From positions 160,001 through 224,000 of the forward strand of contig CAVXWP010000007.1 of NCBI GenBank assembly GCA_963765495.1: DNA of 64,000 nucleotides, written 5' to 3'. Below the pieces are notes generated by a model that ran no database searches, was not told the origin of the DNA, and saw only the letters and a list, made by a program, of their open reading frames with translations. The translations under genes were made by a program, and so were the position numbers. Numbering within the stretch: the stretch's first letter is position 1; every line of letters begins with the position of its first letter. This stretch comes from Blastocatellia bacterium (GTDB taxonomy: Bacteria > Acidobacteriota > Blastocatellia > UBA7656). Shown here piece after piece: positions 5,222 through 60,196 of this stretch.

Positions 5222-5226
5222 CGGGT

Positions 5227-7881: not shown

Positions 7882-7893
7882 AATCGCCCCCGG

Positions 7894-10575
7894 TCATTCC
7901 TGCCTTAGCGCCGTCAACGGGTCGACCTTTGTCGCTCTGCGCGCGGGCAGATAACAGGCAAACAAGGCGACGCTCAACAACAGGAGCGCAACGCCTGCAA
8001 ACGTCAGCGGATCGGTTGCGCTCACATCATAAAGCAGCCCGATTAACAGGCGTGTCACCGCCCACGCAGAGAGCAATCCGATGCCTACGCCGACGAGTGT
8101 GAGTTTTATGCCTTGCCGCAAAATCAGATTGAGCACATCGCTTGTTTGCGCGCCCAATGCCAGCCGCACCCCGATCTCTTGCGTGCGCTCGGTGACGTTG
8201 CCGGAGAGTACGCCATAGATGCCGATGGTTGCGAGCGCGAGCGCCACGAGTCCGAACATCTCGAACAGTATCATCGCAAAATGTCGCTCGGCGGCTGATG
8301 CCGCGAGCAGGTCATCCATCGTGACGATCCGCGCAATTGACTGATCTTTGTCAACAGACCAGATCGCCTTTTTGATGGCGGGGGCAAGCGCCGCCGCATC
8401 ACCGCTCGTGCGGACCACAAGCGACATCGCCCTGTCGGCGAAGGGCCACTGATCGGTCGGGACATACACGGCATCCGACTGGCTCACCGCGAGCGATGCC
8501 TGCTTTACGTCGCCGACCACGCCCACGATTGTGTATAACGGTCCGTCTATCGGTCCGATGCGCAGACGCTGACCAATCGGGTCAACTCCGGGGAACTTGC
8601 GATTTGCGAAAGACTCGCTGATCTGCGCGACGAGCAGAGCATTCGCGCGGTCGTGTTCGTCGAGCAGACGGCCCTGACGGAGAGGGATTCCTGTCGTTTC
8701 GAAATAGCCCGGGCTTACCGCGTATCGAAACGCGCTGTGATCTTCTTCGGGGCTTTCATTCGGGCTTGATTCGAAGTGCACGCCGTATTGATCCAGATCG
8801 CCGCTCAAGGGCAACTGGCTGGTGAAGGCCGCCCGAGTGACACCGGGAATCTGACGCACCGCCTCCAGGGTCTGGCTGAAGAACCGATGAGTGGCTGCGT
8901 TGTCAAAGCGGTGCCCCGATGTCTGCACCTGCATTGTGAGCAGGTGTGAAGCGTCGAACCCCGGATCAACCGCAAAGAGTCGCTGCATACTACGCAACAG
9001 CAATCCCGCGCTCACAAGCAGCACAAAGGCGAGCGCCACCTCCGCGACGACGAGCGTTCCGCGCGTCAGCCTGTGACCGCCGGTCACGCGCCTCGAACTT
9101 TGCTGTATCCCCGTGTGGAGGTCAGCCCGAGATACGTGTAGGGCCGGAATCAGCCCCGTCAAAAGCCCGATCAGCGTGGTGAGGCCCAATCCGAAGGCGA
9201 ATACATTTCCATTGATGACTATCGCATTTACCCGGGGAAGACCGGGTGGGCTGAGCGCCACCAGTGCTCCTACACCGAACTGCGCCACCAGCATCCCGAG
9301 AGCGCCGCCGAGTATGGCAAGCAGCAGACTCTCGGTGAGGAGTTGCCGGATTATCCGAGTACGCCCGGCACCAAGCGCGGCGCGAACCGTAAATTCGCCG
9401 CGCCGCTGTGTGCCGCGAGCCAGCAACAGATTCGTCACGTTTACGCAGGCTATCGTGAGCACCAGCAGTACCGCGCCGAGGACGGCAACGAGCGCAGGCC
9501 TTACGCCGCGTGTGATTTCGTCCTTGAGCGAATTCACTATGAGCCCATCTTTGAGTGCCGCCCAGGGCGCTCTGGGAAAATCGGGCACAGGGGAGTGGGC
9601 GATGGAGTCAATCTCTAATCCGGCCTGGTCTGTTGTGATGCCCGGGCGCAATCGGCCTACTATGTGAAGGTGATGCCCCCACGCCTGCGGGAGCGACATG
9701 TCATATTGCATCGGCGTCCACAGTTCCGCCGCAGGAGACAGGACATTTTCGAAGGCAACCGGCATCACTCCGATGACCGTATAGCTGTTGTCGTCGAGCG
9801 TGATCTGCCGCCCGATAATCGTGTGATCACCGCCGAAGCGCCGTTGCCAGAGCCCGTTGCCGAGGATGGCTACTCTGGGGCCGCCCAGCCGATCATCGGA
9901 TGAATCGAAGTCCCGTCCAATCATCGGCGGCACTCCCAATACCTGAAAATAACTCGCGCTCACGCGCTGCCCATCCAGGCGCTCGGGCTCGGTTTGCCCG
10001 GTCATGGTCGGTTGCCAGGGTTTTACTACCGCGATTGCGTCGAAGGCGCTACTCCGTTCCGCCAGTTCGCGATAGGTGCCGAAGGTGCCGTCAAGGTGCG
10101 AGCCTTCGGGGCCGTGGTCCCAGATCATCTGTATACGGTCGGCTGAAGGATAGGGCAAGGGCTCGAATAGAACGGGTTTCACCGCACTGAAGATCGCGGT
10201 GCTTGCGCCAATCCCAAGCGCAAGCGTTAAGACGGCAATTAGAGTGAACGCGGGGTTTTTCCAAAGCATTCGAATACCAAAACGCAGGTCCTGAATCATC
10301 TCGTCCTCCCAACGGTAAGTTTGCAGCCAGAGCGCATCCCAAAACGCGCCTATGCTTCGCCTGAGCAGATCGAGTTTCGCAAGCCATCCGAGACGGTCCC
10401 ACTCTGAAAGCATCGCTTCGCGGTAACGGAGTTCGGCCTGCCACTCTGCGCGCCAGTCTCGGCGAAGACGGCGGGGCACGATCACGCCTATGAATGCGAT
10501 CAACCAGAGATGAAGCTTTAAGGGGACTCTTTTGCCGTTTTGCATTCCGCACTCTGCCTTCCGCGCTCGAATCAC
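7894..10575 (-). CDS. ADOP-family duplicated permease with N-terminal leader (start uncertain: GTG 10575 or ATG 10545)
   Basis: 893 aa; ADOP motifs; the GTG overlaps the upstream stop (GTGA). Confidence 0.92.
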
Positions 10576-13241
10576 TCGTGCCTCAAGGCCACCAGTGGAT
10601 CAACCCGCATCGCGCGGCGCGCGGGCAGATAGCAGGCCAGCAACGCTGTGCCCGTCAGCAAAAGCGTAATGGCTGCGAAGGTAATCGGGTCGCTTGCGCT
10701 GACACCAAACAACAGCCCTTTCAGCATCCGCGTCACAACCAGTGACGCCGCCAACCCGCCGGCCACGCCTATCAAGACCAGCCGCATGCCGTAACCGAGG
10801 ACCAGCTTGAGAACATCTCCTGTCTGCGCGCCAAGCGCCAGGCGAATGCCGAGTTCGTGCGTGCGCTCTGTGACTGACCAGGCGAGCACGCCGTAAATGC
10901 CCGTTGTGGCCAGCAACAGCGCAAGCCCCGCAAACATCCCGGTCAACCACACCGACAACCGGCGGCGGGCAAGCACCGCCGAAAGCGCCTCTTCCATCGT
11001 CCGCATCTGGTGGATGGGTTGCTCGCTGTCGGTTGCAAATACCGCCTGCCGCACGGCGGCGGCAAGCCCCGCCGGATCGCCTGCGCTGCGAATCATCAAC
11101 ATCTGCTGGTTGCTGAATCCGGGTGCATAAATTTCCGGCTCGACCTGAGTGTCAAGACCGAGGTCTTTGACATCAGCGACGACGCCGATAACGGGAACCG
11201 CGATCGGGTTAGGGAACATCACGCCCATCAGGATATTTTTGCCGACCGGGTCTTCGTTCGGGAAATAGCGGCGGGCCATGGTCTCGTTGATGATAAAGAA
11301 GTTGCGGTTGTTGGCGATGTCGTCGGTCGTGAATACGCGCCCGCCTTTCACGGCTATCCCCATCACCTGGAAATAGTCCTGACTGACGTTACGAATTTGC
11401 GCGACCGGGAAATGGCCCGGCGCAGAAGGCGGCGCGCCTTCCACCGCGAACCGCGTTTTGGCATTGAAGGGAGTCAGCGGAAAATAGTCAATCGTGGCTA
11501 CCCCTTGCACGCCGGGCAGCGCCGCTATGCGCGGTAACAGGTCCCGGTCGAAATTGTTTACCTGCTGAAACTGCTGATATTTCACGGCGGGCAGTGTCAG
11601 TTGCGCGGTCAGTAGATGTTCGGCGCGAAACCCCGGCTCCACCTGTAAGAGGTTTTGAAAGCTCCTGAGCAACAGGCCCGCGCCGACAAGCGCAACCATC
11701 GTGAATGCGACCTCTGCAATCACCAGAAGACGGCTGGTCCGCTGGCGGCCTTTCCCGGCGGAAGATTTCCCGCCATCTTTGAGCGTTTGATTGAGATTGA
11801 GCCGCGAGAGTTGAAAGGCCGGGATCAGCCCAAACAACACGCCGGTCAGCATTGTCACAAACAGAGTGAAGCCCAGCAGTCTCAGATCAAGCCCGACCTC
11901 GTTTAGCGCCGGAAGCTGTTCGCTTGCCATGTGCGGCAGGATGACGCGCAACAACGGCAGGCTCCAGACGGCCAGCAACAGCCCGCCCAGCCCGCCCAGC
12001 AAAGCCAGCATCAGGCTTTCCGTCAGGAACTGCCGGAACAAACGCCCGCGCCCTGCGCCCAGTGCCGCGCGCATTGCCACCTCCCTTTGCCGGTGCGCCG
12101 CGCGTGCCAACAGCAGGTTGGAAACATTTACGCAGGTGATGAGCAGCACGAGCCCAACAGTGCCAAATAGCGCCAGCAGAGCGGGTTTTAACTCGCCGGT
12201 CATTTGCTCGTGCAAAGAGGTGAGCGTGACGCCGATAGTCTTGTTGGTATCCGGGTAGGATTGTTGGAGCCGTCCGGCGATGGATTCCAACTCCGCTCGC
12301 GCCTGGTCGAGTGTGACGCCGGGTTTGAGCCGTCCAACCACTTCAAGCGGATGGCGCACCCGATTTGTCAAATAATCGGTCCCCAGTTGCGAGAGCGGCA
12401 ACCAGACATTCGCATCAAACGGGAACTGCGCGCCCTGCGGCAGTACGCCGACTACGATGTGTGGTTCGCCGTTCAGCCGTATAGTCTTTCCCACGATTCC
12501 CGGGTCTGCGGCAAAGCGGCGCTGCCACAGCCCGTAACTCACCAGCGCAACGCGATCACGTCCTGCCCGATTCTCCTCCGGCAGGAAATTGCGGCCCAGC
12601 GCCGGCTCGATACCGAGCAGCGGCAGGAGGTTTGGCGTGATACAGGTGCCCTGTAATTGCTCCGGCTCGCCGACATCGGTGAGCACATAATTGCCCAGAG
12701 CCTTGAATGAATAAGCCGCCAACCCTGAGAAACTCACTGCCTGTTGTTGCCAATCCTCGAAATCGGGCGTCGCCACCTGGAGCCGTGGCACTTCCGGGTG
12801 CGTCTCGGTTATCGCCACCAGCCGCCCGGGTTCGGCAAACGGCAGCGGACGTAACAGGACGGCATTGATAACGCTGAAGATGGCCGTATTTGCGCCTATG
12901 CCGAGCGCGAGCGTGATGATTGCTATCAATGTGAAACCGGGCGTCTTGAGTAACATTCGCACGCCGTAACGTATGTCTTGAATCATCTCGTCCTCCCAAC
13001 GATAAGTTTGCAACCAGAGCGCATCGCGGAGCGCGCCAAAGGAACGCCTGAGCAGATCGAGTTTCGTAAGCCACCCGAGACGATCCCACTCCGAAAGCAA
13101 CAGTTCGCGATAACGCAACTCGGCCTGCCATTCTTCGCGCCAGTCTCGGCGAACCCTGCCGGGCACGATCACGCCTATGAGCGCGATCAGCCAGTAGCAG
13201 GGATTGGAGCGCCTGGCTTTGAGGCGGTGGAAAAACGCCAT
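10572..13241 (-). CDS. ADOP-family duplicated permease, first after PadR
   Basis: ADOP motifs; start moved to ATG 13241, 4 nt after the PadR stop. Confidence 0.92.
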
Positions 13242-13245
13242 GGTT

Positions 13246-13572
13246 TCAGCCTTGCTCTTCAATAGTCTTTCCGACCTTTGCAGGCCCGGTCTGTTCAAGC
13301 ATCTTGTATCGCTTCGCCGCCTCTATCAGCGCATCCTCTCCGCTGCGGGTGAGTTGATAGTATTTTCGTGGGGGTCGCAATTCCTGCTGCGCGATTGTCG
13401 ACTTTTCCCATTTCGAGGTTACAAACCCCGCTTCCTCCAGACGACGCAGCGCCGGATAGATCGTGCCGCTCGGCAAACCCGTTATGTCCATTATGTCGAA
13501 ACCATACCGATAGCCGTTTGCCAGAGCCTGCAATATCACCGTAGCCGAAAATGATAAATATCCTTTCCCCAT
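13246..13572 (-). CDS. PadR-family transcriptional regulator
   Basis: [38 protein letters not shown]; GAGGAG Shine-Dalgarno before ATG 13572. Confidence 0.93.
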
Positions 13573-13722: not shown

Positions 13723-14871
13723 ATGAGTTTTACGCCCGCAGAGCGATTCAGAAACATCAGAAAGAGTGCGATCCGCAGGCTCTATGAGCGCGCGCCTCAA
13801 GGCTCTATAAATATGGGGCTGGGCGAGCCTGGTTTTCAGACCCCCGAAGCGGTGCGCCGCGCGGCCACACGCGCCATAGAAGAGGGCGGGAACGGATATA
13901 CCTCAAACGCCGGGCTTGTGGCGCTTCGCCGTCGGATAGCCGATTATCACAATCGGGACGCTCGCGCCGTTCTTACCCCCGATTCGATCTGTGTGACCAA
14001 CGGGTCGGCCGAGGCGTTGTTTGCGATAGTTATGGCTATGGCAGGGCCTGGGGATGAAGTGCTGATGCCAGACCCTGGCTATCTCGCCTATCCTGTGCTG
14101 ACCGAGATTGCCGGCGCGCGCGCGGTTCGTTACTCGCTTCCGGCGGCGCGTGGCTTTGCGTTTGACCGGGATAGTTTTCAGACCGGGGTTTCGCAGGCGA
14201 CACGGCTTGTCTTTGTGCTGTCGCCGTCGAATCCCACGGGCCGCGTGATCGAGCGCGAAGACCTGCGCTTTATAGCGGAGTGTCTTGCGGGGACTGACGC
14301 CTATGTGGTTTCCGACGAGATATACCGCGAGCTTTATTTCGGTGAGCGGCCCTCTTCGATAGCCGAGTTTTTTGACAGGACCATAATCATATCGGGTCTG
14401 TCAAAGATGATGAGCATGACGGGCTGGCGACTGGGCTGGGCCGCCGGTCCCACGGATGTGATCTCGCAGGTGACGGTGATGCATCAATACGTCTCTACGT
14501 GCGCGTCGGCCATCTCGCAGAAAGCCGCGCTCGCCGCATTCAGCGAAGAAGGGCGCGAGGCAACCGCGCAGATGAGAGAGGAGCTTCGCAGCCGCCGCGA
14601 TGTAATAGAGCGAACCATCGAGCGTGAGTTGAAGTTGCCTTTCGTCGGCGGGGAAGGCGCTTTCTATATTATGCTGGATGTGTCGAAATTTGGCTGTTCC
14701 GAAGCAGTAGCCGAGGCGTTACTTGATGAGCGGGTAATCACCGTGCCCGGTTCGGCATTCGGCTCAGAGAGTGAGGGCTACTTGCGGCTCTCTTTTTCAA
14801 TCGAACCGGAGCGGATAAAAGAAGGGATACGCCGCATTGCGAGAGGGCTCCGCGTGATGCGTGATGCATAG
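13723..14871 (+). CDS. PLP-dependent aminotransferase, class I/II
   Basis: GEPGF, SPSNPTG, SDEIY, SGLSKMMSMTGWRLGW (PLP lysine), GYLRLSF. Confidence 0.93.
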   Translation: MSFTPAERFRNIRKSAIRRLYERAPQGSINMGLGEPGFQTPEAVRRAATRAIEEGGNGYTSNAGLVALRRRIADYHNRDARAVLTPDSICVTNGSAEALFAIVMAMAGPGDEVLMPDPGYLAYPVLTEIAGARAVRYSLPAARGFAFDRDSFQTGVSQATRLVFVLSPSNPTGRVIEREDLRFIAECLAGTDAYVVSDEIYRELYFGERPSSIAEFFDRTIIISGLSKMMSMTGWRLGWAAGPTDVISQVTVMHQYVSTCASAISQKAALAAFSEEGREATAQMREELRSRRDVIERTIERELKLPFVGGEGAFYIMLDVSKFGCSEAVAEALLDERVITVPGSAFGSESEGYLRLSFSIEPERIKEGIRRIARGLRVMRDA

Positions 14872-14887
14872 GAAGCACCGGGTTTTT

Positions 14888-14940
14888 GACAGGATTAACG
14901 GGATTTCCGTAGATGGTTGGGAAATCCCGTTAATCCTGTC
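14888..14940. repeat. Perfect 21-bp inverted repeat (GACAGGATT nonamer family) between convergent genes; likely bidirectional terminator
   Basis: GACAGGATTAACGGGATTTCC-N11-GGAAATCCCGTTAATCCTGTC. Confidence 0.85.
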
Positions 14941-14950
14941 TAAAGCCTTC

Positions 14951-17941
14951 TTAGAAGGTGAACTTTGCCGAAAGCTGAACCTGGCGCGGGTCGCCTACGC
15001 CCTGTCTCAGGAACCCGTCGAAGTTGAACAGCCCGGGCGTGGTCAGCGGGTTGATGTTGTTCTTGTTGTTAAAGGTATTGAACATTTCGAATGTCGGGGT
15101 CAAAGCGAAACGTTCGCCGAACCTGAACGGACGCATCACCCGCCAATCGAATGAGAAGAACTTGTTGTCTTTGCGTATGCTGTTGCGGCCAAGATCAACA
15201 CCGTTTACTACGCGAGGGTTCGGTGTGATCGGCTGCGCCGATCTTGCCTGAATCCGCACGTTTGCCGAAAAGCCTCCCGGCAGTTCCATATAAGTATAGA
15301 AGTTGAACTTGTGACGGATGTCTCTGTCAGACAGCGAATAGTCTTTTGAGAAATCCGTGTGATCGAAGATGCGGTCTGTGAACGGATCGCGCTCATTCGA
15401 ATCGTCGTCGAGGTCTTTCGACAACACGTAGTTGCCTTCAAGCTGGAACCCGTCGCTGAAACGTTTTCGCACGCCTATAGTGAATCCGCGATAGAGCGAT
15501 TTGGCCGAGCTTTGCGTGACAAACACATCGCCAAGCGAGGGGAACATCACCGGGTTGACGTTTATGTTTATAAAACGCGTAAGGTGAACACCCTTCGACC
15601 AGGTGAAATCCGCGTACACCGCGAGATTTGGATAAAGCTCCTGTTCGTAGCCGATGTTGCCTGTATAGATGCGCGGGTTGGCGTAGTCTTTGCTGAATAC
15701 GCGGACGCCCGCTCCGGGCGGTATCACGCCGGGCGCTGACGGTGGCGGTATAGTCCCCGGGAAGGTCGGCGGCAAGGGGGTGAATCCAAGGGCGAAGAGT
15801 TGCGTATTTGTGAAGAGGCTGAACTGCTGGACGCCGTTATCGGTGATCGAACCGACCTGCGTCAGCATGTTCTGGCGGGCGTTATAGATTCCCGCGCTCG
15901 CTCTCAGCACCGATTTCTGATTGTTGAACAGATCCCAGGCAAATCCGAGGCGGGGCTGAAACATCTTCTTTTGACTCGGCAGCGTGCCGTCGGAAGGGAA
16001 GCGGGGATCGCTCAGCAACGGCCCGTACGCGGTCATCGACGGGTCTATTGTGGGATCGGGGAATATCTGCGCTTCCCATCGCAGCCCGTAGCTCAGCGTG
16101 AAATTCGGAGCGATCTGCCACTTGTCCTGAATAAACAGGGCATACTCTTCGTTATCGATTTTCGATGCGCCTGGAGGAATATCCGATAACCCTGTGGGGA
16201 TTCCGCCCTGTAGATAAAAGATCAGCGGGCCGACGGGCAGGTTGCCTCCCGGGCAGCTTGCCGGAAGCGTGACATAGCTGCCGTCAGGGCATTCGGCAGC
16301 GCGCGGGCCAAAGCCGCCGGGCGCTGCCGGCGAGGCGTAGCGAAGGAAGCCCGATACGCTGTCGAAAAGATACCGTCCCTCAAAGAATCCTCGGAAGACC
16401 TGATCGTTGAGGCTGTGTATCCACTCGCCGCCCGCCTTGACCGTGTGCGTTCCCTTGATTATCGAGAAGTTGTCTTTGATCTGCGTGCGCCAGAAAATCT
16501 CGTCAACAGTCGGAGCCAGGAAGAACGGATTGCCAAACCGGAAGGTGTCGACAAATCCCATGGCCACATCGGCGGGCACGTTTGAATCCACTGCCGAGCG
16601 CGGGCGGTTCTCGCGCGAATAGGTGAAGTGAGCTTCGTTCAACTTTGTAGGCGAGATCGTGCTGAAGAGATTCAGATTGAATACGTGTATCTTTGACGGG
16701 CCTTCGATGCCGTTTGCGGAATTGCCGTAGGTGGCAACGTCAAAGGTCTGATTCTCGTTTCTGGAACGATCGAAGCTGTATGAGAGTCCCAGTTTATTTG
16801 CCGCCGAGAGATTCCAGTCAAGCTTGGCCAGAGTCGCCGTATTCCTTACGGGGTGCTTGACGGGCAAGCCCTCTTCCTGATTCAGGCTTGACTTGAAGAA
16901 ATCGACAAGCGCGAGCCTCTGACAATCCGCGTTGCCGTTTATCAGCGCCTCGTTTCCCCTGACTGTAGGGTTTGAGACGGGGCAGGGCGTCGAGCCTCGT
17001 TGAACGCTCAGGTTTGGTCGCGAGAGATTTTCGATGATTTGCTCGAAGGCCCCGAAGAAAAATACCTTGTCTTTGATGATTGGGCCGCCGATCGTTCCGC
17101 CGAATTGCTCTCGATGAAAATCTTTGAGCGGCTGTCCGTCTGAGGTATTGGCCGCAAGCGCTTCGAGTCTTTGATAATGGAACAGACTGCCGTGAAGGTC
17201 ATTGGTACCGGATTTGGTAATGACGTTGACGACGCCGCTTGCGGTGCGCCCAAACTCGGCGCTCGCCCCTGTAGCCACTACCTGAAACTCTTTGACCGCC
17301 TCCAGCGTGATGTCGATCGCGGCTCGCTGGCCGCCCACCTGTTCGCCGAAGAAACCGTTGTTGTAATCGCCGCCGTCGAGGCTGATGTTGTTAAAGATGC
17401 CGCGCTGACCCGAGAAGGTTATCTCGTCGCCGTCAGGCCCCTGTACCACGCTCACGCCGGGGGTCAATGTCAACAGGTCTTCAAATTTTCTTCCGAGAAT
17501 AGGTGTCGTGCTTATAGACAGTTCGTTGAGAGTGCTGCTTGATTCGGTCTTAACCGTATCAATGGTCGGGGCAGCCGCGATTGTTATGCGCTCTTCAAGC
17601 TGAGAGACTTTCATGTTTAAGGTCAGGGATATGGTCTGGCCTACTGTGAGAGTCAGGTTTTCCTGAACCAGAGTGGCAAATCCCTGCTTTGCGACGGTAA
17701 GCGTGTAGCGACCGGAAGGCAATTGAAGAAAGACAAACCGGCCGTCTGTATTTGTGTTCAAAGTTCTTTCGAAATTCGTATCGAGATTCTTTACCTCGAT
17801 GAGGGCATCGGCGACAACGGCATTCGACTCATCCACCACCACGCCCTGAATAACGCCTGTGGTGATCTGAGTTTGAGCTTTCGCTACGAACGCCAACGCC
17901 ATTATGCCAAGTAAACAAAATGCAACCAGCCTCATCTTCAT
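14951..17941 (-). CDS. TonB-dependent receptor, Oar-like, with N-terminal carboxypeptidase-regulatory-like domain
   Basis: 996 aa; signal peptide; plug motif EFQVV..SAEFGRTASGVVNVITKSGTN; C-terminal PRQVQLSAKFTF. Confidence 0.92.
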   Translation of the reverse strand: MKMRLVAFCLLGIMALAFVAKAQTQITTGVIQGVVVDESNAVVADALIEVKNLDTNFERTLNTNTDGRFVFLQLPSGRYTLTVAKQGFATLVQENLTLTVGQTISLTLNMKVSQLEERITIAAAPTIDTVKTESSSTLNELSISTTPILGRKFEDLLTLTPGVSVVQGPDGDEITFSGQRGIFNNISLDGGDYNNGFFGEQVGGQRAAIDITLEAVKEFQVVATGASAEFGRTASGVVNVITKSGTNDLHGSLFHYQRLEALAANTSDGQPLKDFHREQFGGTIGGPIIKDKVFFFGAFEQIIENLSRPNLSVQRGSTPCPVSNPTVRGNEALINGNADCQRLALVDFFKSSLNQEEGLPVKHPVRNTATLAKLDWNLSAANKLGLSYSFDRSRNENQTFDVATYGNSANGIEGPSKIHVFNLNLFSTISPTKLNEAHFTYSRENRPRSAVDSNVPADVAMGFVDTFRFGNPFFLAPTVDEIFWRTQIKDNFSIIKGTHTVKAGGEWIHSLNDQVFRGFFEGRYLFDSVSGFLRYASPAAPGGFGPRAAECPDGSYVTLPASCPGGNLPVGPLIFYLQGGIPTGLSDIPPGASKIDNEEYALFIQDKWQIAPNFTLSYGLRWEAQIFPDPTIDPSMTAYGPLLSDPRFPSDGTLPSQKKMFQPRLGFAWDLFNNQKSVLRASAGIYNARQNMLTQVGSITDNGVQQFSLFTNTQLFALGFTPLPPTFPGTIPPPSAPGVIPPGAGVRVFSKDYANPRIYTGNIGYEQELYPNLAVYADFTWSKGVHLTRFININVNPVMFPSLGDVFVTQSSAKSLYRGFTIGVRKRFSDGFQLEGNYVLSKDLDDDSNERDPFTDRIFDHTDFSKDYSLSDRDIRHKFNFYTYMELPGGFSANVRIQARSAQPITPNPRVVNGVDLGRNSIRKDNKFFSFDWRVMRPFRFGERFALTPTFEMFNTFNNKNNINPLTTPGLFNFDGFLRQGVGDPRQVQLSAKFTF

Positions 17942-18031
17942 TACTTTTCCCTCCGGCTGAAATTAACGGTGTCCTAACCTAAGTGGCTGGACGAATCTAT
18001 AGAATAACCGGGGTCATAAAGTCAACAGAAA

Positions 18032-18254
18032 ATGGGGGTCAGGGGCCGGGGACCGGGGGCCGGGGATGGTTATTAATCGCACTTGTCTTTCTCATCCGAG
18101 GTTTCTGATTGGGATAAGCGCAATGGATATGAACAGACGCGGATGCGACGGAAAAATGCGAAACAAATTTGCGCTGATCGGGTATTTGCCGGCCCCGGTC
18201 CCTGGCCCCTGACAACCGATCACCGGCCCCCGGCCCCCGGCCCCCGGCCCCCAT
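18032..18254. repeat. Inverted heptamer-array element (GGGGCCG/GGGGTCA)n...(CGGCCCC)n
   Basis: Arms at about 18032-18065 and 18189-18254; related to 25711..25845; overlaps the HAD 3' end. Confidence 0.85.
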
Positions 18255-18909
18255 CTAAGAGGTGTTCGCGGATGAATTCGGCTACGCCGTCTCCGCTAGG
18301 CAAGGTGGTTACGAAATCGGCATCCTTTTTGATTGAATCAAGTGCGTTGGCTACGGCCACGGCAAAACCGGAGGCTTGCAGGAATGCGTGGTCATTTTCG
18401 GCATCGCCCACGGCTATCAATTCGCGGGGCTGAACGCCTGCTTTTTTTAGCCCCGCTTCAAGCCCTGTGGCTTTGTTGACGCCCGTAGGCAAAACCATGA
18501 CATCCTGTTTGTTAAAGATGATTTCCAGTTCCAATCCGAGCGTTGAGATGGCCGAAAGCACTTCGTGTTCGTGGGGTCTGACGGTCCCGATTATGATGCG
18601 ACCGGCTGAGAATGGAACTCTTCGACGTTCAAGTTCCCGAATAAACTCAGGCGGCGGCGGTACGGCAAGGTCTTCGATTTCATCCGTTGCGGGGCAGTAG
18701 AGCACCGCTCCGTTTTCAGCTACTACCATGTCGAAGAGCGGGATTTGAGGGCAAGCCTCTAAAAGATTTTCAAACTCGCGGCCCGTAACAAGCCCCAGCA
18801 AATATCCCGCTTTTTTTGCCTCGGCCAGCGCCTCTGCGGCGGCGGGAACAACTACGCCGAGGTTGGCCAGTGTGCGATCATAGTCGCAGGCCAGCATCTT
18901 GTATTGCAA
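18220..18909 (-). CDS. HAD-IIB (Cof-like) hydrolase
   Basis: DYDRT motif I, VTGR, AENGA, NKATG, GDAEND; the GGRGPGAGGR tail derives from the repeat. Confidence 0.9.
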   Translation of the reverse strand: MQYKMLACDYDRTLANLGVVVPAAAEALAEAKKAGYLLGLVTGREFENLLEACPQIPLFDMVVAENGAVLYCPATDEIEDLAVPPPPEFIRELERRRVPFSAGRIIIGTVRPHEHEVLSAISTLGLELEIIFNKQDVMVLPTGVNKATGLEAGLKKAGVQPRELIAVGDAENDHAFLQASGFAVAVANALDSIKKDADFVTTLPSGDGVAEFIREHLLDGGRGPGAGGR

Positions 18910-19082
18910 ATCAAGTCTCCTTTCGTCTGATTATTTTAGCATTCAATTCTGTTAGCTCGGCGCTTGCAGTGTCAACCGGTCGGGGCAGAGGCCGCCGGGA
19001 CCGGACGAGCAAAATAAGGCATCTTCGTTGTAGAATGTACCCGCAATTTCGGAACATATCTGTTCGGAGAGAGGATGAATTT

Positions 19083-19241: not shown

Positions 19242-21941
19242 ATGCTGGAGGAGTTAATGGCGAAACGAGCTAGACTCACGGGCCAGGTGCTTGATGGAAA
19301 ATATCATCTCGACAAACGGCTCGGACGCGGAGGCATGGGAGCCGTCTATCTTGCCACGCATCTGGGCACAAAGCGCCCGGTCGCGCTGAAGGTGATCGCG
19401 CCGCAGTTTATGGCCAACACGGAATTCGTCGAGCGGTTCAGGCGCGAGGCCGAAGCGGCGGGACGCCTGCGTCATCCAAACGTCGTCAACGTTACCGATT
19501 TCGGTTTTGCCCGCGTAGGCGAAAACGATCTCGCCTATCTTGTGATGGAGTATCTGGACGGCGCAACGCTCGGCGAAACGCTCAAACAGAGAGGCCGCCT
19601 GCCTCTCGAGATGGTCGTGGACATTGTGGAACAGGTTTGCCTGGCCATAGACGACGCTCATCAGCAGGGGGTGATACACAGAGACTTGAAGCCCGATAAC
19701 ATCTGGCTCGAACCCGACCGTCGAGGCGGATACAACGTCAAGGTGCTCGATTTCGGACTCGCCAAACTCCGCGATGCGGCTGTGACCGATACCGAAACTG
19801 AATTGCCGCGCGAGGAACTTCCCCGTATGATGACGCGCGCGGGAGCAGACAATCGGCCCGAGACGCTCGGCCTGAAACGGGCGACCGCCGCTCCATCATC
19901 TGATCTGGCCGAAGGGGAAGCCGCCACGCGGATACAATCAATTGCTGAGAGCGAACAGGAGCAAACCGCTTTATTCGATCATCCTCCCGACGATGATGAT
20001 GCCGAATATGACATCGAAGATTATGGGGAACAACAGACCGCTTTGTTTGATCAACAGACCGAATCGGCTGACTCTGATCTCGAAGCCGCCACGCAGATAC
20101 AATCAATCACCGAGAGCCGGTCAGCCAATGAGACAGATGAAGAGAGCGGCGGCGAAACAGGCAGTGAAATCAGCAGTGAAATCAGCAGTGAAATCAGCGC
20201 GAGTTCCTCTCGGCAGCGATCATCAACAGGCGCGTTCGACCTCAGCACCTCCTCAACATCGAACCTCACTCGCATAGGCGCGGTCATGGGCACGCCGCTT
20301 TACATGTCGCCCGAACAATGTCGTGGCCAGGCGCTCGACTACGGTTCCGACATATACAGTCTTGGTGTGGTCGTCTATCAGATGCTGGCCGGAGAGCCGC
20401 CTTTTGACGGAAGCATGAACGAGCTAATACTCAAGCACACCGAAGAAGCGCCTCCTCCGCTCTCGGACCGAATGAGCGATATTCCAAAACCTGTCGAAGC
20501 CGTCGTGATGTCGGCGCTCGCAAAAAGGGTGTCGGACCGCCCTCAAAGCGCGCAATCCTTTGCCGATGCATTTCGTGCCACAGCCGAAGACGACGCGGCG
20601 ATATTGCGACAGGCAAAGCAAATCTATTACGGCAATATACCGAATTTTCTGTCGGCCACTTTTCTTGCTTACACACCTTTCATACTGCTTACGGTTGTGT
20701 TGAGCGGGGCGCTTTCGCTTGCGCAGGTGAATCCGCTGGGCGTCACTGCCTTATGTTTCTGGCCGTTGTTTGTCCTGATAATCATAGTCGCAAACCATAT
20801 CAAGACAGCCGTCTTTACAAGGGTAATTTACTTGCTTCGGGTTTCGCCTGACACGCGCCCTACTGCTCGACAAAACCTGACCGCCTTGATCGCAAGCGCG
20901 GGCCCTCTTTTGAAGACGACTTTGCAGAGCATGCTCGCTACCGTCGCGGGGCTTGTGAAACTCGTTGTGCCGGGTGTTCGGACCTCGATAAAACATGCGC
21001 TCTTTCCCTCCGTAGTGATTGTGGAAGGAAAAGAAGGAACGGCGGCGCTCGTGCGTTCCGAGCAACTGGTCAAGCCTCTGCAATCGGTCGCGGCGGCGCT
21101 CGACATGCGCCATATGGGCATCGCGCTTGCGGCGTTTTTAGCCCTTCCATTTTTCGGGATGGTTGGGATTGTGGCCTCGGGCGGCCCGCCCGAGTTGTGG
21201 TTCTATACTACGCTGAGATCGAGATATGTCACCATCGGCTATACGTGGTTTATGCTCTTCATAATCCATTCCGTTTACGGCACGATCCCTCTTGTCCTGC
21301 TCTATTTCAGAGCGCGGCAGGCAAGGGGCGAGGCGCTTGAGCGAACCGCCGACCAGCAGTCGCTTGCCGAGAAGCCGCGCAAACGCCAGAGCGCGTTTGG
21401 CAAATCCACACTGGTGTGGATCATAGCGCCGTTTCTGATGCTTGCCGTCTTTCTGCTCCCGCCTTTGACTATGGGGCGACCGCCCCTCGTTGAGGCCGCG
21501 CGAACCGGGCGCAGCGGCGAAGTCAGGAAACTGATCGAGGCGGGCGCAAACGTAAACACGAAAACCACAAACGACATCACGTCATTGATGTTTGCGGCAA
21601 GAGAGGGATACCCCGACATAATAAAGGCCTTGCTAGATGCGGGCGCGGACCCGAAGGCCAGAGACGGCGACGGCGATACGGCGCTGTTATACGCGGCAGA
21701 GCAGGGGCGCGAGGATACTTTGAAATTGTTGCTCGAAGCGGGGGCAGACCCTAACGCTGCCAATAAGGAAGGGCAGACACCGCTGATGGTAGCTTCGGGC
21801 AAGGGGCGGGTTGATGTTATTCGGACTCTGCTTGCCGCCGGGGCCGATCCACACGCGACAGACAAGAAAGGCAAATCCGCATCGAGCTACGCTAAGGAGG
21901 AAGGCCACGACGAAGCGGTCGAGGCGCTAACAGGGAAGTGA
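19242..21941 (+). CDS. Hanks-type Ser/Thr kinase with transmembrane region and C-terminal ankyrin repeats
   Basis: GRGGMG, VALK, HRDLKPDN, DFG, GTPLYMSPE; several hydrophobic helices; GDTALLYAA/GQTPLMVAS ankyrin repeats. Confidence 0.92.
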   Translation: MLEELMAKRARLTGQVLDGKYHLDKRLGRGGMGAVYLATHLGTKRPVALKVIAPQFMANTEFVERFRREAEAAGRLRHPNVVNVTDFGFARVGENDLAYLVMEYLDGATLGETLKQRGRLPLEMVVDIVEQVCLAIDDAHQQGVIHRDLKPDNIWLEPDRRGGYNVKVLDFGLAKLRDAAVTDTETELPREELPRMMTRAGADNRPETLGLKRATAAPSSDLAEGEAATRIQSIAESEQEQTALFDHPPDDDDAEYDIEDYGEQQTALFDQQTESADSDLEAATQIQSITESRSANETDEESGGETGSEISSEISSEISASSSRQRSSTGAFDLSTSSTSNLTRIGAVMGTPLYMSPEQCRGQALDYGSDIYSLGVVVYQMLAGEPPFDGSMNELILKHTEEAPPPLSDRMSDIPKPVEAVVMSALAKRVSDRPQSAQSFADAFRATAEDDAAILRQAKQIYYGNIPNFLSATFLAYTPFILLTVVLSGALSLAQVNPLGVTALCFWPLFVLIIIVANHIKTAVFTRVIYLLRVSPDTRPTARQNLTALIASAGPLLKTTLQSMLATVAGLVKLVVPGVRTSIKHALFPSVVIVEGKEGTAALVRSEQLVKPLQSVAAALDMRHMGIALAAFLALPFFGMVGIVASGGPPELWFYTTLRSRYVTIGYTWFMLFIIHSVYGTIPLVLLYFRARQARGEALERTADQQSLAEKPRKRQSAFGKSTLVWIIAPFLMLAVFLLPPLTMGRPPLVEAARTGRSGEVRKLIEAGANVNTKTTNDITSLMFAAREGYPDIIKALLDAGADPKARDGDGDTALLYAAEQGREDTLKLLLEAGADPNAANKEGQTPLMVASGKGRVDVIRTLLAAGADPHATDKKGKSASSYAKEEGHDEAVEALTGK

Positions 21942-22030
21942 AGCGTGATGCGTGATTTATCCGGTTTGCAAATTGTCGTTTATAGGTGGTCTGCCTGATA
22001 ATCACGGATCACGGATCACGCTTCACGCAT
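21938..22030. repeat. Inverted heptamer element (GTGATGC)n-core-(GCATCAC)n; contains the stop codons of both convergent genes
   Basis: TGA 21939-41 and TCA 22023-25 lie in the arms; core resembles those at 39716, 42361 and 60097. Confidence 0.85.
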
Positions 22031-25710: not shown

Positions 25711-25845
25711 ATGGGGGTCAGGGGTCGGGGGCCGGGGGCCGGTGACAGGTTATTGATGTCTGTAAATTTCAGCCCGGAAACGCCAGTCATGGCTAAGAGC
25801 CGTCTGCCTGCTAATGAATAACCGGCCCCCGGCCCCCGGCCCCTG
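25711..25845. repeat. Inverted heptamer-array element (GGGGTCA/GGGGCCG family)
   Basis: atgggggtcaggggtcgggggccgggggccgg..GGTTATT / AATAACCggcccccggcccccggcccc. Confidence 0.85.
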
Positions 25846-25846
25846 T

Positions 25847-27498: not shown

Positions 27499-27539
27499 GT
27501 GATGCGCTCACGTGAGCGCATCACGCATCACGCATCACT
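27499..27539. repeat. Minimal GTGATGC/GCATCAC heptamer hairpin before uvrC
   Basis: gtgatgcgctcacgtgagcgcatcacgcatcacgcatcac. Confidence 0.8.
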
Positions 27540-31330: not shown

Positions 31331-31447
31331 TGAGGGATGAGGGATGAAAAGGACTGTCGGGGAACTCTTCGGTAATTGGTTAAATCAATTAATCGGAATT
31401 TACCCTTGGATTCTTTTTCATCCCTCATCCCTCATCCCTCATCCCTC
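31331..31447. mobile_element. Empty (non-coding) GGGATGA inverted-heptamer element
   Basis: GGGATGAGGGATGAAAAGGA, about 57 nt AT-rich core, then ATTCTTTT(TCATCCC)x4; same ends as 33583..34034. Confidence 0.75.
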
Positions 31448-31491
31448 CTATGTTGCTTCCGGCCCCTAAAACAAGTATCTTTATCTCCGCG

Positions 31492-33585
31492 ATGGAGTCC
31501 GACCAGATTTTCCCAGATGACAAACCTGATATCTCATCCGAGGAGATCGGTGAGCCGGAAGTGCTCGTCCGCAGTTCGGATGAAGATATAGCGATTTTCG
31601 ATTCGCAGCGTATAGTCGAAGCGCTCGTGCGCGAGGCCAACATAGATGCCGATCTGGCCGCGCAGATCGGGCTCGAAGTGCGCGAGTTTATTCAAAAGCT
31701 CGGATTCCGCACCCTCAGTTCTTCGCTCATACGCGGGCTGGTAGACGCAAAGCTCCTTGAGCTTGGTCTTGAGGACGCGCACAGGTCGCACACCCGGCTG
31801 GGCGTTCCCTTTTATGATGTAGATCGCATAATTCACAATTCGTTTCGCGAATCGATCTCGCAGTCCTACGGGCCGGAGGGCACTAGCCTGATGCTGGCCG
31901 AGTCCATCAAACGCGAGTACGCCATCTTAAGCGTCTTCTCCGAACAGATTGCAAACGCTCACCTTGTAGGCGACATACACATACACGGTATTGGGGCCGT
32001 AGACCGCCCGCACTCGTTGATCTCGGCCGTCGATTATGTCAAGCAGTTCGGCATCACGCTGCCTCAGGGGTTCGCAAGCTCGCGGCCTGCCCGCCGGGCC
32101 GAAGTGCTGGTCGCGCATCTTGTAAAGCTGTCGGCCGCGCTGCAAGGCTATCTGGCAGGCCCGGTCATCTGGGACTCGCTCAATTTCGCGCTTGCGCCTT
32201 ATCTGGTCGATCTGGAAGACCGCGATATAAAGCAACTGGCGCAAACGCTTGTCTTCGAGTTTTCCGCCCCGGCCGTGGCGCGAGGCGGGCAGACCGTTTT
32301 TGCGGACCTGCACCTTGATTGGGATGCGCCGTCTTATATGAAATCGCGCCCGCTGATAGGCGCGGGCGGCCTGCCTATGAACGAGACCTACGGCGATTTT
32401 ACAAGCGAAGCCCATCGCTTTCTGCAAGCCCTGCTTGAAGTCTACATCGAGGGCGACGGACAGGGCCGCTCGTTTTTGACCCCCCGCCTGGTGCTTCACA
32501 TAAATCCTCACTTCAACGAAATTGCAGGCTATCGCGCGGTCCTCGAACTGGCCAGCCGTCTTGCGGTTGAGCGCGGCGGGCTCTCGATAGTCTTTGACCG
32601 TGACGAGGACGCCTTCTTTCGCCGTTACGGCATCAAGGACGACAAGGCGCTTTCGCGTGCCGAAAGCCACGCGTTGCGCTCATCTCAGTTTCAGATCGTA
32701 TCGCTGAATCTGCCGCGCGTCGGATACCTGGCCGGGGGCAATCAGGTAAAGGTCTTTGAGGAGTTGACCCGGCTGATGGAAACGGCCGCGCAGGCCCATC
32801 TGGAAAAGCGAGTCTTTCTTGAGAAACTGCTTGCGCTTGGCGAGCGCGGGCCGTTGTCTGCGCTTACGACCAGAGCGAGCGGCACCCCTTTCCTCAAACT
32901 CAACTGGGCGACCCACGCCATCAGTCTCGTGGGTCTGAACGAGCTTTGCCGCGCCGTGCTTCAATCGGATCTGCACGATTCGCAGGCGACTATGGAGTTT
33001 GCCTTAAAAGTGCTGACGCATTTGAAGCGCGAGGCCGAGCGATTGTCGAACAAACACAAGGTGCGTTTTTTGTTGAGCGGGCAGTCAACCGAAGTGACCT
33101 CGCACAGACTTGCGCGGCTCGATTTGAGATTTTTCGGCGACACGGCAGCAAGCGTGGTCTGCGGCGATGCGGATACGGACGCAGGTTACTACACCGAGGG
33201 AGTGCAGTTGTCGGCTACAAGCGATGTGCCTGTGCTCGACCGCGTTCGCACCGAAGGCGTATTTCACGAGTTTGGATTCATAGACGCAATGACATCCATC
33301 TGGCTCGGAGAGTCGATCCCCTCGGCCGACGATCTGGGTCGATTGATCTCTCAGGCATTTTATCAATCATCCTGTGCGGGTCTGATCTTCTGCCCCGAAT
33401 TCACGATATGCGCGAGTTGCGGCGGGACTACCAGAGGGCTGCATCTTTCCTGCTCTATTTGCGGATCGAATCGGGTTGACGGATTGGCCTATGCCGGAGA
33501 CCGCTACGGACACACTTCATCCTGGGACACGGGGCGGCTGGCCGAATTAAGCGACCGCCGCCGCGTGCGCGGAACAGACATGTGA
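31492..33585 (+). CDS. Anaerobic ribonucleotide reductase NrdD-like protein (ATP cone + C-terminal Zn ribbon), apparently lacking catalytic residues
   Basis: ATP cone (FDSQRIVEALVRE..IRGLVDAKL), AHLVGDIHIH, SLNLPR, GLNEL, RLARLD, CASC..CSICGS, WDTGRLAELSDR. No RxxGY glycyl motif and no finger-loop Cys. Confidence 0.85.
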   Translation: MESDQIFPDDKPDISSEEIGEPEVLVRSSDEDIAIFDSQRIVEALVREANIDADLAAQIGLEVREFIQKLGFRTLSSSLIRGLVDAKLLELGLEDAHRSHTRLGVPFYDVDRIIHNSFRESISQSYGPEGTSLMLAESIKREYAILSVFSEQIANAHLVGDIHIHGIGAVDRPHSLISAVDYVKQFGITLPQGFASSRPARRAEVLVAHLVKLSAALQGYLAGPVIWDSLNFALAPYLVDLEDRDIKQLAQTLVFEFSAPAVARGGQTVFADLHLDWDAPSYMKSRPLIGAGGLPMNETYGDFTSEAHRFLQALLEVYIEGDGQGRSFLTPRLVLHINPHFNEIAGYRAVLELASRLAVERGGLSIVFDRDEDAFFRRYGIKDDKALSRAESHALRSSQFQIVSLNLPRVGYLAGGNQVKVFEELTRLMETAAQAHLEKRVFLEKLLALGERGPLSALTTRASGTPFLKLNWATHAISLVGLNELCRAVLQSDLHDSQATMEFALKVLTHLKREAERLSNKHKVRFLLSGQSTEVTSHRLARLDLRFFGDTAASVVCGDADTDAGYYTEGVQLSATSDVPVLDRVRTEGVFHEFGFIDAMTSIWLGESIPSADDLGRLISQAFYQSSCAGLIFCPEFTICASCGGTTRGLHLSCSICGSNRVDGLAYAGDRYGHTSSWDTGRLAELSDRRRVRGTDM

Positions 33586-34034
33586 AGGGATGAGGGATGA
33601 AAAGGAAAAACTGGAAAACGCGCCGGTAAAGAAACAAGACTTACGCGAAAGAACAAAGCAGTATGCACTTCGAATACTCCGGCTTTATGCGGCCTTGCCC
33701 AAAAGCACCGAAGCGCAGGTTCTTGGAAAACAAATACTGAGGTCTGGGACATCCGTAGGCGCGCAATATCGCGAAGCCTGTCGCGCAAAATCCAATCTGG
33801 ACTTCATCAGCAAGATGGAAGGCGCTCTACAGGAATTGGAGGAAACCTGTTATTGGCTTGAACTATTAAGTGAAGCCGAGATAGTTTCAAAGGAACGGTT
33901 GAATTCGCTATACGGCGAAACTGAGGAGTTAATTTCGATGTTTGTGACAATGGTAAGAAACGTCAAAGACAAACAAAAATAGGAGGTTTGACGGATAATT
34001 CTTTTTCATCCCTCATCCCTCATCCCTCATCCCT
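33583..34034 (+). mobile_element. Coding GGGATGA inverted-heptamer element carrying a four-helix-bundle gene
   Basis: Left arm TGAAGGGATGAGGGATGAAAAGGA; right arm ATTCTTTT(TCATCCC)x4; AT-richer interior. Confidence 0.75.
33590..33982 (+). CDS. Four-helix-bundle protein (TIGR02436 / 23S rRNA IVS protein family)
   Basis: DLRERTKQYALRI..QILRSGTSVGAQYREACRAKS..DFISK..ELEETCYWLELL. Confidence 0.92.
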   Translation: MRDEKEKLENAPVKKQDLRERTKQYALRILRLYAALPKSTEAQVLGKQILRSGTSVGAQYREACRAKSNLDFISKMEGALQELEETCYWLELLSEAEIVSKERLNSLYGETEELISMFVTMVRNVKDKQK

Positions 34035-35292: not shown

Positions 35293-35844
35293 ATGGCCTG
35301 GATAAAAATCATCGAAGAAGACGAAGCCGACCCTGAGCTTAAACAGATGTACGACCGTATGCGAAATCCTCGCAGCCCCGTAGACAACATACTCAAGATA
35401 CACAGCCTGAACCCGCGCGGATTACGCGCCCATTTCGATTTTTATAAGACCGTCATGTACGCGCCGTCCGCGCTTTCCCGCATCGAACGCGAAGCGATAG
35501 CCGTGGTCGTCTCAAGCATCAACCGCTGTCATTACTGAGTGATCCATCACGCGGAGGGGCTCCGCCGACTCACGAGAGACGAGAAACTGGTCGAACAACT
35601 CAAAACCGATTATCGGAGCGCCTCGCTTGAGCCCCGATTGCGTGCGATGCTCGATTATGCAAGGAAGCTGACGCTCACGCCTCACGAAATGGAGCAATCC
35701 GATATAGACCCTTTGCGCGGTGCCGGGTTGTCGGACGCAGCCGTACTCGACCTCAATATGGTGGTCGGATATTTCGCCTTCGTAAATCGCCTGGCCGACG
35801 GCCTCGGCGTAGAGCTTGAGGCCAGATGGGGAGAGGAAGGGTGA
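35293..35844 (+). CDS. AhpD/CMD-like peroxidase-related selenoprotein (183 aa; in-frame TGA 35536-38 read as Sec)
   Basis: Two ORF-track halves share one frame and join as REAIAVVVSSINRCHY-U-VIHH (CxxU); C-terminal FAFVNRLADGLGV. Confidence 0.85.
35536..35572 (+). promoter_or_regulatory. Putative bacterial SECIS hairpin
   Basis: GCGGAG-GGG-CTCCGC stem-loop 12 nt after TGA; TGAGT can also pair with ACTCA at 35568-72. Confidence 0.65.
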
Positions 35845-35874
35845 TTTAAGATTTAAGATTTCCTGTATTAGAGT

Positions 35875-39715: not shown

Positions 39716-39812
39716 GTGATGCGTGATGCGTGATTTTTAGACAGCCGCCTGTTTAAGTCACCTTGCAATCCTGGCAGGTCACGGATCACTCATCACGCAT
39801 TAAGCATCACGC
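39716..39812. repeat. GTGATGC inverted-heptamer element; close reverse-complement relative of 60097..60196
   Basis: Core tttttaga..gcctgtttaagtcaccttgcaatcctggcaggtcacg. Confidence 0.88.
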
Positions 39813-42360: not shown

Positions 42361-42454
42361 CGTGATGCGTGATGTGTGATGTGTGACCCGGAGATTGGCA
42401 ATTGACTGTTAATAGCCTTATGCCTGAAAATCACGCATCACGCATCACGCATCA
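42361..42454. repeat. GTGATGC inverted-heptamer element in the divergent mutS2/GNAT region
   Basis: cgtgatgcgtgatgtgtgatgtgtga..aaaatcacgcatcacgcatcacgcatca. Confidence 0.85.
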
Positions 42455-60099: not shown

Positions 60100-60196
60100 T
60101 GATGCGTGATTCGTGATTCGTGACCTGCCAGGTTTGCAAGTTGACTTAAACAGGCAGCCCATCTAAAAATCACGCATCACGCATCACGAATCACGC
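60097..60196. repeat. GTGATGC inverted-heptamer element between convergent genes; begins at the MFS stop
   Basis: tgatgatgcgtgattcgtgattcgtga..aatcacgcatcacgcatcacgaatcacgc. Confidence 0.88.

Follow-up and report, generated by a model that had tools for sequence, protein, structure and literature searches.

How did a small gene for a protein without a catalytic motif come to lie between inverted arrays of a seven-nucleotide repeat, and why do the same arrays, 2.2 kb away, enclose no gene at all? The question is raised by 64,000 nt of the forward strand of a contig from a Blastocatellia bacterium (Acidobacteriota; GenBank assembly GCA_963765495.1, contig CAVXWP010000007.1, positions 160,001–224,000), a stretch which we call the window and whose positions serve as coordinates below. 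Two hairpins in this window, copy A (31331–31447) and copy B (33586–34034), have arms made of the heptamer GGGATGA and its complement TCATCCC. Copy B encloses a gene for a 130-residue four-helix-bundle (4HB) protein of the S23p, or 23S rRNA intervening sequence (IVS), family. We propose, with a probability of roughly 0.65, that copy B is a selfish, IVS-like cassette located outside rRNA, in which gene and arms form one unit, and that copy A belongs to the same arm family but has no gene. This proposal is carried by the anatomy of the two copies, their lineage-private presence, the association of such genes with such arms across phyla, the tracking of heptamers by protein clades, and the fold of the protein.

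Two hairpins with the same arms, and a gene in one of them

By repeat search, the left arms of A (31333–31353) and B (33586–33606) are identical at 21 of 21 nt and the right arms (31410–31446 and 33998–34034) at 37 of 37 nt. Each left arm holds about 2.4 copies of GGGATGA and each right arm about 4.3 copies of TCATCCC, plus a short A/T-rich inner part, and within each copy the arms are 95–96% complementary over 22–23 nt. The exact heptamer dimer occurs eight times in the window, always within these four arms; when up to two mismatches are allowed there are nine matches against 0.47 expected, a count that none of 100 shuffles reached. Copy A, read like copy B and its gene on the plus strand, consists of a left arm (31331–31353) with a short A/G-rich inner part, a 56-nt loop (31354–31409; 41% G+C) with a small inner stem, and a right arm (31410–31447) that opens with a T-rich inner part and ends 6 nt short of the putative –35 box of an NrdD-like gene. 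The left arm of copy B (33586–33607) begins right after the TGA of that NrdD-like gene (33583–33585) and includes the ATG of the 4HB gene (33590–33982), 4 nt past the TGA. The right arm (33998–34034) stops 6 nt short of the ATG of a DUF2227 gene (34041). Between the arms lie 56–58 nt in A and 391 nt in B, and these insides are unrelated; an origin of copy A by internal deletion of copy B was rejected, blastn-short having returned chance matches of 9–15 nt only. Copy A folds on the plus strand at –56.0 kcal/mol (z –7.7), and when 461 nt spanning copy B are folded, a stem of the two arms closes the minimum-free-energy structure and the centroid structure alike (z –3.2).

The initial annotation of this locus had placed the two copies at these positions and had described them as a coding and a non-coding member with common ends, sitting at gene junctions on either side of the NrdD-like gene, the coding one holding an AT-richer gene whose ATG lies in the repeat. 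All of this stands: A lies upstream of the NrdD-like gene and B after its stop, both exactly in junctions, and the gene in B has 45.0% G+C. The annotation had also noted that the sole non-Watson–Crick pair is a G:T at the same place in both copies (31351:31414 in A, 33604:34002 in B) and had taken it to suit a stem of RNA or single-stranded DNA. The shared position is real, and it is common to A and B because their arms are identical copies; the argument for RNA or single-stranded DNA is weak, since a G:U bias between strands, which would hint at an RNA stem, was looked for over 26 hairpins and rejected, no consistent bias being found.

The 4HB open reading frame (ORF) matches PF05635 (3.6e-22; 79 bits against a cut-off of 33.8) and TIGR02436 (9.3e-28; 96.6 bits against 24). 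No other Pfam domain is found in the protein, and copy B encodes no transposase or recombinase. The gene exceeds every other in the window in A+T content, with G+C at 49.3–61.0% (median 56.8%) in 34 other ORFs, and its composition is foreign. The closest solved relative is PDB 2RLD (5e-23), a Bacteroides protein labelled 'S23 ribosomal protein family' and deposited with five chains. An AlphaFold2 model (pLDDT 91.2) has helices at residues 12–35, 40–64, 69–95 and 101–129. Searched with Foldseek, this model retrieves 2RLD (TMt 0.86–0.92), 2GSC (Xcc0516; 0.84–0.86) and Avd, a protein of diversity-generating retroelements (DGRs; 4DWL and 8UB7), with a TM score of 0.8 normalised to the target and 14–18% identity. 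The model thus predicts the S23p/Avd fold, and the family membership and kinship to Avd named in the initial annotation are borne out by the profile scores and by Foldseek. Xcc0516 is described as a pentamer in the relevant passage of PMC4990558, and the family is said to resemble Avd in that of PMC10053308. The R-x3-S-x3-N-x2-E core, part of a conserved motif reported in an excerpt of PMC3936711, is matched in part: R51, S55 and E62 are in register, all three invariant in a 30-sequence alignment, but position 59 has Q in place of N. The family is large, a single-sequence search returning 10,531 clusters at 50% identity (E ≤ 0.001). A search of a phage collection gave two weak matches, both to unannotated records from human faecal samples.

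The orthologous sites were compared in relatives. A genome scan with the NrdD-like protein gave 21 loci, 13 of which were used (L001–L013; 71–85% identity); these are metagenome-assembled genomes (MAGs) of Blastocatellia, Chloracidobacterium and other Acidobacteriota, one of them deposited as 'uncultured Clostridia'. At the nrdD–DUF2227 junction, a GGGATGA element and a 4HB gene are missing from each of the nine relatives with both flanks, and flank projection gives spacers of 1–148 nt. L013 has 10 nt from stop to start and L010 and L012 have 39 nt, and the other six carry hairpins of 76–157 nt with other repeat units, one of them an octamer and one with a second array nested in it. At the purN–nrdD junction no GGGATGA hairpin was found in any of six syntenic relatives (7–62 nt), and L001 has a 139-nt hairpin of another type. 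Judged from these alignments, both GGGATGA copies are private to the lineage of the window among the sampled genomes. Alignment of the nrdD-like/DUF2227 junctions had been put forward as a way to find empty sites; the sites prove empty or differently filled, and the gene is not fixed across relatives. Presence and absence recur at closer range, in a trio (L004, L005 and L010) with flanks 84–94% identical: one hairpin is in two genomes, and at its place the third has a spacer of 11 nt within a short G+C-rich hairpin; a second hairpin is missing from one genome, and one site has three different hairpins.

Gene and arms across phyla

A tblastn search of a plasmid collection with the 4HB protein matched 32 records, of which 17 were taken, chosen for taxonomic spread before their flanks were seen. 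Controls were 199 ORF-called genes from the window and L001–L013 and 97 annotated coding sequences (CDS) from two 50-kb cyanobacterial plasmid stretches, one of which held a further 4HB gene, so that 19 4HB genes were scored, the window's and 18 others. Each gene was scored by comparing two segments of 125 nt, one around its start and one around its stop, for their best ungapped inverted match, with a threshold of at least 14. The 4HB genes scored 10–35 and 14 of the 19 reached the threshold, as against one of 296 controls. That one, among the 199 ORF-called genes, is nrdD itself, whose score comes from the arms of copies A and B on either side of it. None of the 97 CDS of the two cyanobacterial stretches exceeded 12, and the three 4HB genes there ranked first to third with 35, 33 and 26. 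For the first 13 4HB genes against the 199 ORF-called controls the Mann–Whitney p value is 3e-10. The plasmid hosts belong to Cyanobacteriota, Chloroflexota, Bacteroidota, Spirochaetota and Bacillota, and inverted period-7 arrays, which the initial annotation had suggested seeking beside homologues, are thus present around 14 of 19 4HB genes in five phyla of plasmid hosts plus the acidobacterial window. Of the three observations that the initial annotation had named as refuting it, two were checked, and neither check went against it.

The repeat unit goes with the protein. In the plasmid set protein clades follow the repeat: the window protein groups with proteins of Pseudanabaena and Chlorohelix at 62–71% identity, all with arms of a GATGA core, and a second clade (61–71% identity) has a GATT core in common. 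Two pairs of proteins, 90% and 85% identical, have one heptamer per pair; the pairs are 72–79% identical to each other and their heptamers are one base apart. Such tracking is what inheritance as a unit would predict, and it fits specific recognition of the heptamer by the protein, of which it would be no proof. In 119 close homologues (66–78% identity) the arms were read from the protein termini only, and arm-encoded peptides were found at the N terminus in 18 and at the C terminus in 62 (one residue apart), with four having both, or 76 of 119 in total. Because neutral DNA is saturated at 66–78% protein identity, these arms are being kept. The termini of 150 diverse representatives of the family, searched for a periodicity of seven residues that would betray translated arrays, gave no runs, which is uninformative, as four heptamers amount to only about nine residues.

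The pairing of a gene-bearing and a gene-less element is also seen again. On a Nostoc flagelliforme plasmid (L034), a gene-bearing element (17524–17980) and an empty one (18754–18961), 0.8 kb apart, have the same arms and unrelated loops; a search for a gene remnant in the empty twin gave chance matches only. The same stretch has two more empty hairpins, whose heptamer is that of the arms of a gene-bearing Aulosira element.

The closest published design is that of the rRNA IVS. In the passages of PMC4990558 that describe it, the Coxiella 23S IVS is 428 nt long with a 28-bp terminal stem, has, just ahead of the S23p ATG, a degenerate heptamer besides two or three tandem ones (the number depending on the strain), and is cleaved by RNase III in vitro, with ends mapped by rapid amplification of cDNA ends at the start of the first repeat. 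Copy B shares with the IVS of Leptospira, Coxiella and others the protein family, a stem of terminal inverted repeats with the ORF in its loop, tandem heptamers right before the ATG and a stem length within the same range (21–28 bp). Unlike them, it lies between the NrdD-like and DUF2227 genes and not in rRNA helix 25 or 45, both of its arms are heptameric, it has a gene-less twin 2.2 kb away, and RNase III cleavage is here an extrapolation. Copy B therefore stands outside the rRNA IVS class, whose defining location it does not share, but it is built like a member and, by analogy, probably works like one. The likeness to IVS drawn in the initial annotation is upheld by this match to the Coxiella design, and for the same reason its description of the element as new was too strong, the Coxiella IVS already combining an S23p ORF with a stem and tandem heptamers. 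Earlier proposals cited in the same source hold that an IVS is a remnant of transposition, or a mobile element with an ORF serving mobility (PMC4990558). Outside rRNA, PF05635 genes are reported inside cas loci, for instance between cmr3 and cmr2, in part of PMC3936711; in rRNA, insertions of Candidate Phyla Radiation (CPR) bacteria also carry them, according to part of bioRxiv 10.1101/2024.02.27.582315. A full-text search, whose coverage excluded subscription journals, found no literature linking non-rRNA PF05635 genes to inverted heptamer arrays or gene-less twins.

A comparable set of likenesses and differences holds for pairs of miniature inverted-repeat transposable elements (MITEs) and autonomous transposons. 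Like these, the hairpins comprise coding and non-coding members with common terminal inverted repeats and unrelated insides, present in some genomes and absent from others; unlike these, they come with no recognisable transposase, their arms are tandem repeats of variable copy number, and no target-site duplication is seen.

Nine of the 17 plasmid 4HB loci (L022–L026, L028, L031, L038 and L039) lie in or beside defence or CRISPR genes, mostly in the same orientation as the operon. The settings are upstream of cas1, between cas2 and cas1, and at DrmD–PglX, hsdS–hsdR, helicase–N6 methylase and DUF1156–Swt1 HEPN (twice, in a cyanobacterium and in a member of Chloroflexota), together with a helicase-related gene and a cytosine methyltransferase. 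The last is on Nostoc sp. ATCC 53789 plasmid pNsp_c (L028), where a 4HB cassette with four-copy heptamer arms (359–1255) is flanked by two short ORFs, both running on through the arms. Upstream, the ORF carries the annotation DNA cytosine methyltransferase, and the arrangement looks like a gene split by the cassette.

A proposed mechanism and its rivals

In the mechanism that we favour, gene and arms would be inherited and moved together, between loci, genomes and phyla, and the cassette would land in, or replace, very short intergenic spacers. Transcribed with nrdD and DUF2227, the arms of copy B would close a stem of about 21–23 bp. By analogy with the 23S rRNA IVS, RNase III would cut this stem and release the loop with the 4HB message, and tolerance of such a cut in the RNA would explain cassettes inside operons and inside rRNA. 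The 4HB protein may bind the repeated stem of its own element and so help its retention or spread. Both the cut and the binding are inferred from related systems, the latter because pentameric Avd grips an RNA stem-loop with all five protomers: Avd is described, in the part of bioRxiv 10.1101/2023.10.23.563531 concerned with its structure, as a positively charged pentamer whose protomers all touch an 11-bp RNA stem-loop. Beside gene-bearing hairpins stand gene-less ones with the same arms, comparable to MITEs beside their parent transposon.

The initial annotation had suggested that these elements may be excised or processed as RNA, and copy A probably does not fit this as a general rationale. 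The NrdD-like gene, judged by conservation, probably starts at ATG 31492 and not at 31450. Upstream of 31492, a 15-nt stretch with a –10-like hexamer is identical in 12 of the 12 relatives that retain the region (L001 differs), and a –35-like hexamer keeps its 17-nt spacing to it despite indels upstream; the relatives differ by 4 nt in length farther upstream, which rules out a coding role for that part. The purN gene most likely starts at ATG 31286, with a similar hexamer pair ending about 5 nt from the left arm of copy A. Copy A would thus probably lie between the –35 boxes of two putative divergent promoters (31454–31482 being the –35/–10 pair on the nrdD side), outside the normal transcript. 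These promoters are deduced from conservation, a consensus promoter scan having called neither the nrdD-like nor the purN promoter, and the conserved stretch could instead be a regulator's box. If the promoter reading is right, RNA excision is not the reason why copy A is tolerated there, and insertion probably reaches untranscribed spacers.

A more general claim can be made only tentatively, and we hold it to be possible rather than probable: S23p/Avd-like 4HB genes with inverted heptamer arrays would be cross-phylum mobile cassettes whose ring protein recognises its own stem, one protomer per repeat, the Acidobacteriota hairpins and cyanobacterial arrays would be gene-less derivatives, and the rRNA IVS would be a special case. 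If gene and arms are one unit, three puzzles merge into a single testable question: the role of the large S23p/IVS family, without a known function since the early 1990s, the origin of rRNA IVS and that of intergenic heptamer arrays would all turn on whether a ring protein binds its own heptamer stem and thereby drives retention or spread. The cassettes are found within operons, among them plasmid-borne CRISPR, restriction and DISARM/BREX loci, and can split genes. Their repeats also break assemblies, and recognising them improves annotation.

Several observations weigh against the cassette reading. The plasmid sample is mostly cyanobacterial and hand-picked (17 of 32 records), and five of the 19 4HB genes stay below the threshold, with tandem arrays alongside that are complex or direct. 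The copy A loop holds no remnant of the 4HB gene by blastn-short (chance matches of 9–15 nt only). No target-site duplication was recognisable between filled and empty junctions, the flanks being 70–94% identical and the spacers tiny. Orthologous hairpins switch heptamer quickly in place, so that a junction with differing heptamers is no proof of independent insertions. Stem stability relative to gene direction favours neither strand consistently over the 26 hairpins, copy A is probably untranscribed, as argued above from the putative promoters, and the Coxiella S23p is judged probably untranslated and decaying in a passage of PMC4990558. Finally, the window and the 13 related loci (278,293 nt in total) contain about 25 gene-less hairpins and one whole 4HB gene, besides a truncated one in L002. 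Because gene-less hairpins so greatly outnumber gene-bearing ones in this Blastocatellia sample, they may constitute a repeat class in their own right, in which the gene is carried as cargo.

This last possibility is the main rival. It supposes that the hairpins are a class of their own, like REP/REPIN or the cyanobacterial heptamer arrays known as STRR, spread or maintained by the replication and repair machinery of the host or by an enzyme from another locus, and that the 4HB gene lodges preferentially in their loops. The protein would then have a function that does not involve the arms, such as one in defence islands; nine of the 17 plasmid loci, as noted, lie in or beside defence or CRISPR genes. 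We consider it unlikely. A tandem-repeat search with inspection by eye finds nine hairpins with inverted tandem heptamer arms in the window, of three heptamer types, and only copy B bears a gene; the link between heptamer hairpin and 4HB gene drawn in the initial annotation is to that extent loosened, nearly all hairpins of the relatives being gene-less too. Besides A and B, two are GGGGGCC-armed (18034–18252, with a loop of about 157 nt, and 25713–25843) and have the same lead-in, and five are GTGATGC-armed and gene-less (21938–22027, 27499–27538, 39716–39812, 42361–42454 and 60100–60196). Four of the GTGATGC copies agree at 75% mean column identity, including a conserved loop of about 45 nt which in one of them is inverted relative to the arms, and constitute a true dispersed family. 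No 4HB partner gene for the GTGATGC or GGGGGCC arms was seen in the window or the relatives, where a profile hidden Markov model (HMM) of 120 close homologues, run over all ORFs, clearly matched the window gene only; distant 4HB genes could be missed, as the truncated L002 gene scored E 3.8 in that search. The L002 gene, of another subfamily, follows a GGGGTCA array at the nrdD–DUF2227 junction, a type found there in L005 and L007 as well, which would suit a gene entering an existing hairpin; synteny is lost beyond it, and we give it little weight.

The wider behaviour of these hairpins also suits an independent class. Over the same 278,293 nt, arrays found with Tandem Repeats Finder (TRF) pair in inverted orientation 36 times and in direct orientation eight times, and the inverted period-7/8 pairs with gaps under 200 nt are of many different units. 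The hairpins fill intergenic spacers, typically 1–20 nt from each neighbour, between tandem, convergent and divergent gene pairs alike, arrays are nested in L005, and at one site a heptamer hairpin stands in place of a small G+C-rich hairpin. The resemblance to REP/REPIN–RAYT systems lies in short, dense, intergenic hairpin-forming repeats in both orientations, as set out in part of PMC3116915; here, in contrast, the repeats are tandem heptamers and not a single imperfect palindrome, and the gene is a non-catalytic helical bundle. Cyanobacterial heptamer arrays are likewise tandem and intergenic, and on the plasmids examined they are the arms of 4HB cassettes. Those of Beggiatoaceae (e.g., TAACTGA), also tandem and intergenic, are nearly all direct, with one inverted set among 170. 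What tells against cargo is that arms follow the protein clade across phyla and are kept at 62–78% identity, which would be unexpected for genes that drop into any hairpin, and that in the two cyanobacterial stretches arms were found on every 4HB gene and on no other. The window, a small sample at 64 kb, also has no transposase, RAYT (Y1 transposase), integrase or reverse transcriptase among 39 scanned ORFs. On balance, then, we keep to the cassette in which gene and arms are one unit.

Two further explanations fare far worse. One is that nothing is mobile and that the arms are a local regulatory structure (terminator, processing site or insulator) evolved around a resident gene, with A a partial duplication of B. 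Many relatives do have hairpins at the same junction, evolving in place, stems are well kept (folding z-scores of –3 to –8 among the hairpins), and at one orthologous site a short hairpin with a T-run is replaced by a heptamer hairpin; this reading is nonetheless highly improbable given that neither copy is in the nine and six relatives with readable flanks, one of which has a 10-nt junction, that the gene has foreign G+C content and the same arms stand beside homologues in other organisms and phyla, and that copy A, probably flanked by divergent promoters, is in an unlikely place for a terminator or processing site. The terminator reading of the arms was rejected, a scan having found no terminator-like or promoter-like site at them and no T-run after them.

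The other, that the 4HB protein serves as accessory subunit, in the manner of Avd, to a reverse transcriptase whose gene lies elsewhere, and that the element spreads through excised hairpin RNA that is copied and reinserted, draws on the fold shared with Avd and the DGR ribonucleoprotein, on the need of a reverse transcriptase for its Avd, which binds an RNA stem-loop (same portion of bioRxiv 10.1101/2023.10.23.563531), and on the release of IVS RNA by RNase III, but we give it hardly any credence, as the window has neither a reverse transcriptase nor a template/variable repeat pair (the long direct repeats near the 4HB gene are the arms only), identity to Avd in structural alignment is just 14–18%, and the probably untranscribed spacer of copy A permits insertion but offers no RNA source.

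Further arrays and other genes of the window

Arrays in the relatives show how such repeats change. In L005 (12140–12290) a TCAAATC array is nested in the GGGGTCA-armed hairpin at the nrdD–DUF2227 junction, and TCAAAT-related arrays occur alone in L010 (12134–12172) and beside a GGGGTCG remnant in L007 (10760–10838); the nesting suggests that one element inserted into the loop of another. At an orthologous hairpin in L004 (4245–4309), L005 (4025–4090) and L010 (4009–4076), the right-arm heptamer copies differ in unison between genomes, CAGCACT in one version and CAGGACT in the other, each version matching one of two left-arm variants, a pattern indicative of concerted change among the copies of an array. 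When an orthologous hairpin was compared for covariation among three close genomes, only one of its 25 pairs had changed on both sides, too little to interpret.

Two solitary arrays in the window are without the hairpin design described above. A GATTTAA array of 2.7 copies (35843–35861), with no inverted partner, has a small ORF on one side and the end of rpoD on the other, and a perfect non-heptamer palindrome of about 21 bp (14868–14945) lies just past a solitary GCGTGAT array, between aminotransferase and TonB-dependent receptor-like genes. An Rfam scan gave no family at gathering score, hence no rRNA was found in the window; its only match at E ≤ 0.5 resembles mir-H1, falls on the G+C-rich hairpin at 25718–25846 in both strands, and was taken as chance.

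The gene content is that of an ordinary chromosome, with rpoD, dnaG, mutS2, uvrC and purN. The NrdD-like gene (31492–33585, plus strand), which lies outside the element, matches PF13597 at 1e-80 yet falls under every NCBIfam equivalog cut-off. Among the relatives, L012 (CAZTUB010000011.1), titled 'uncultured Clostridia bacterium', has an NrdD-like locus 82% identical to that of the window and syntenic with Blastocatellia MAGs, and the bin is probably mislabelled. Near the start of the window (2546–13298), four tandem minus-strand genes each encode about 890 residues with a MacB-like periplasmic core and FtsX permease domains.

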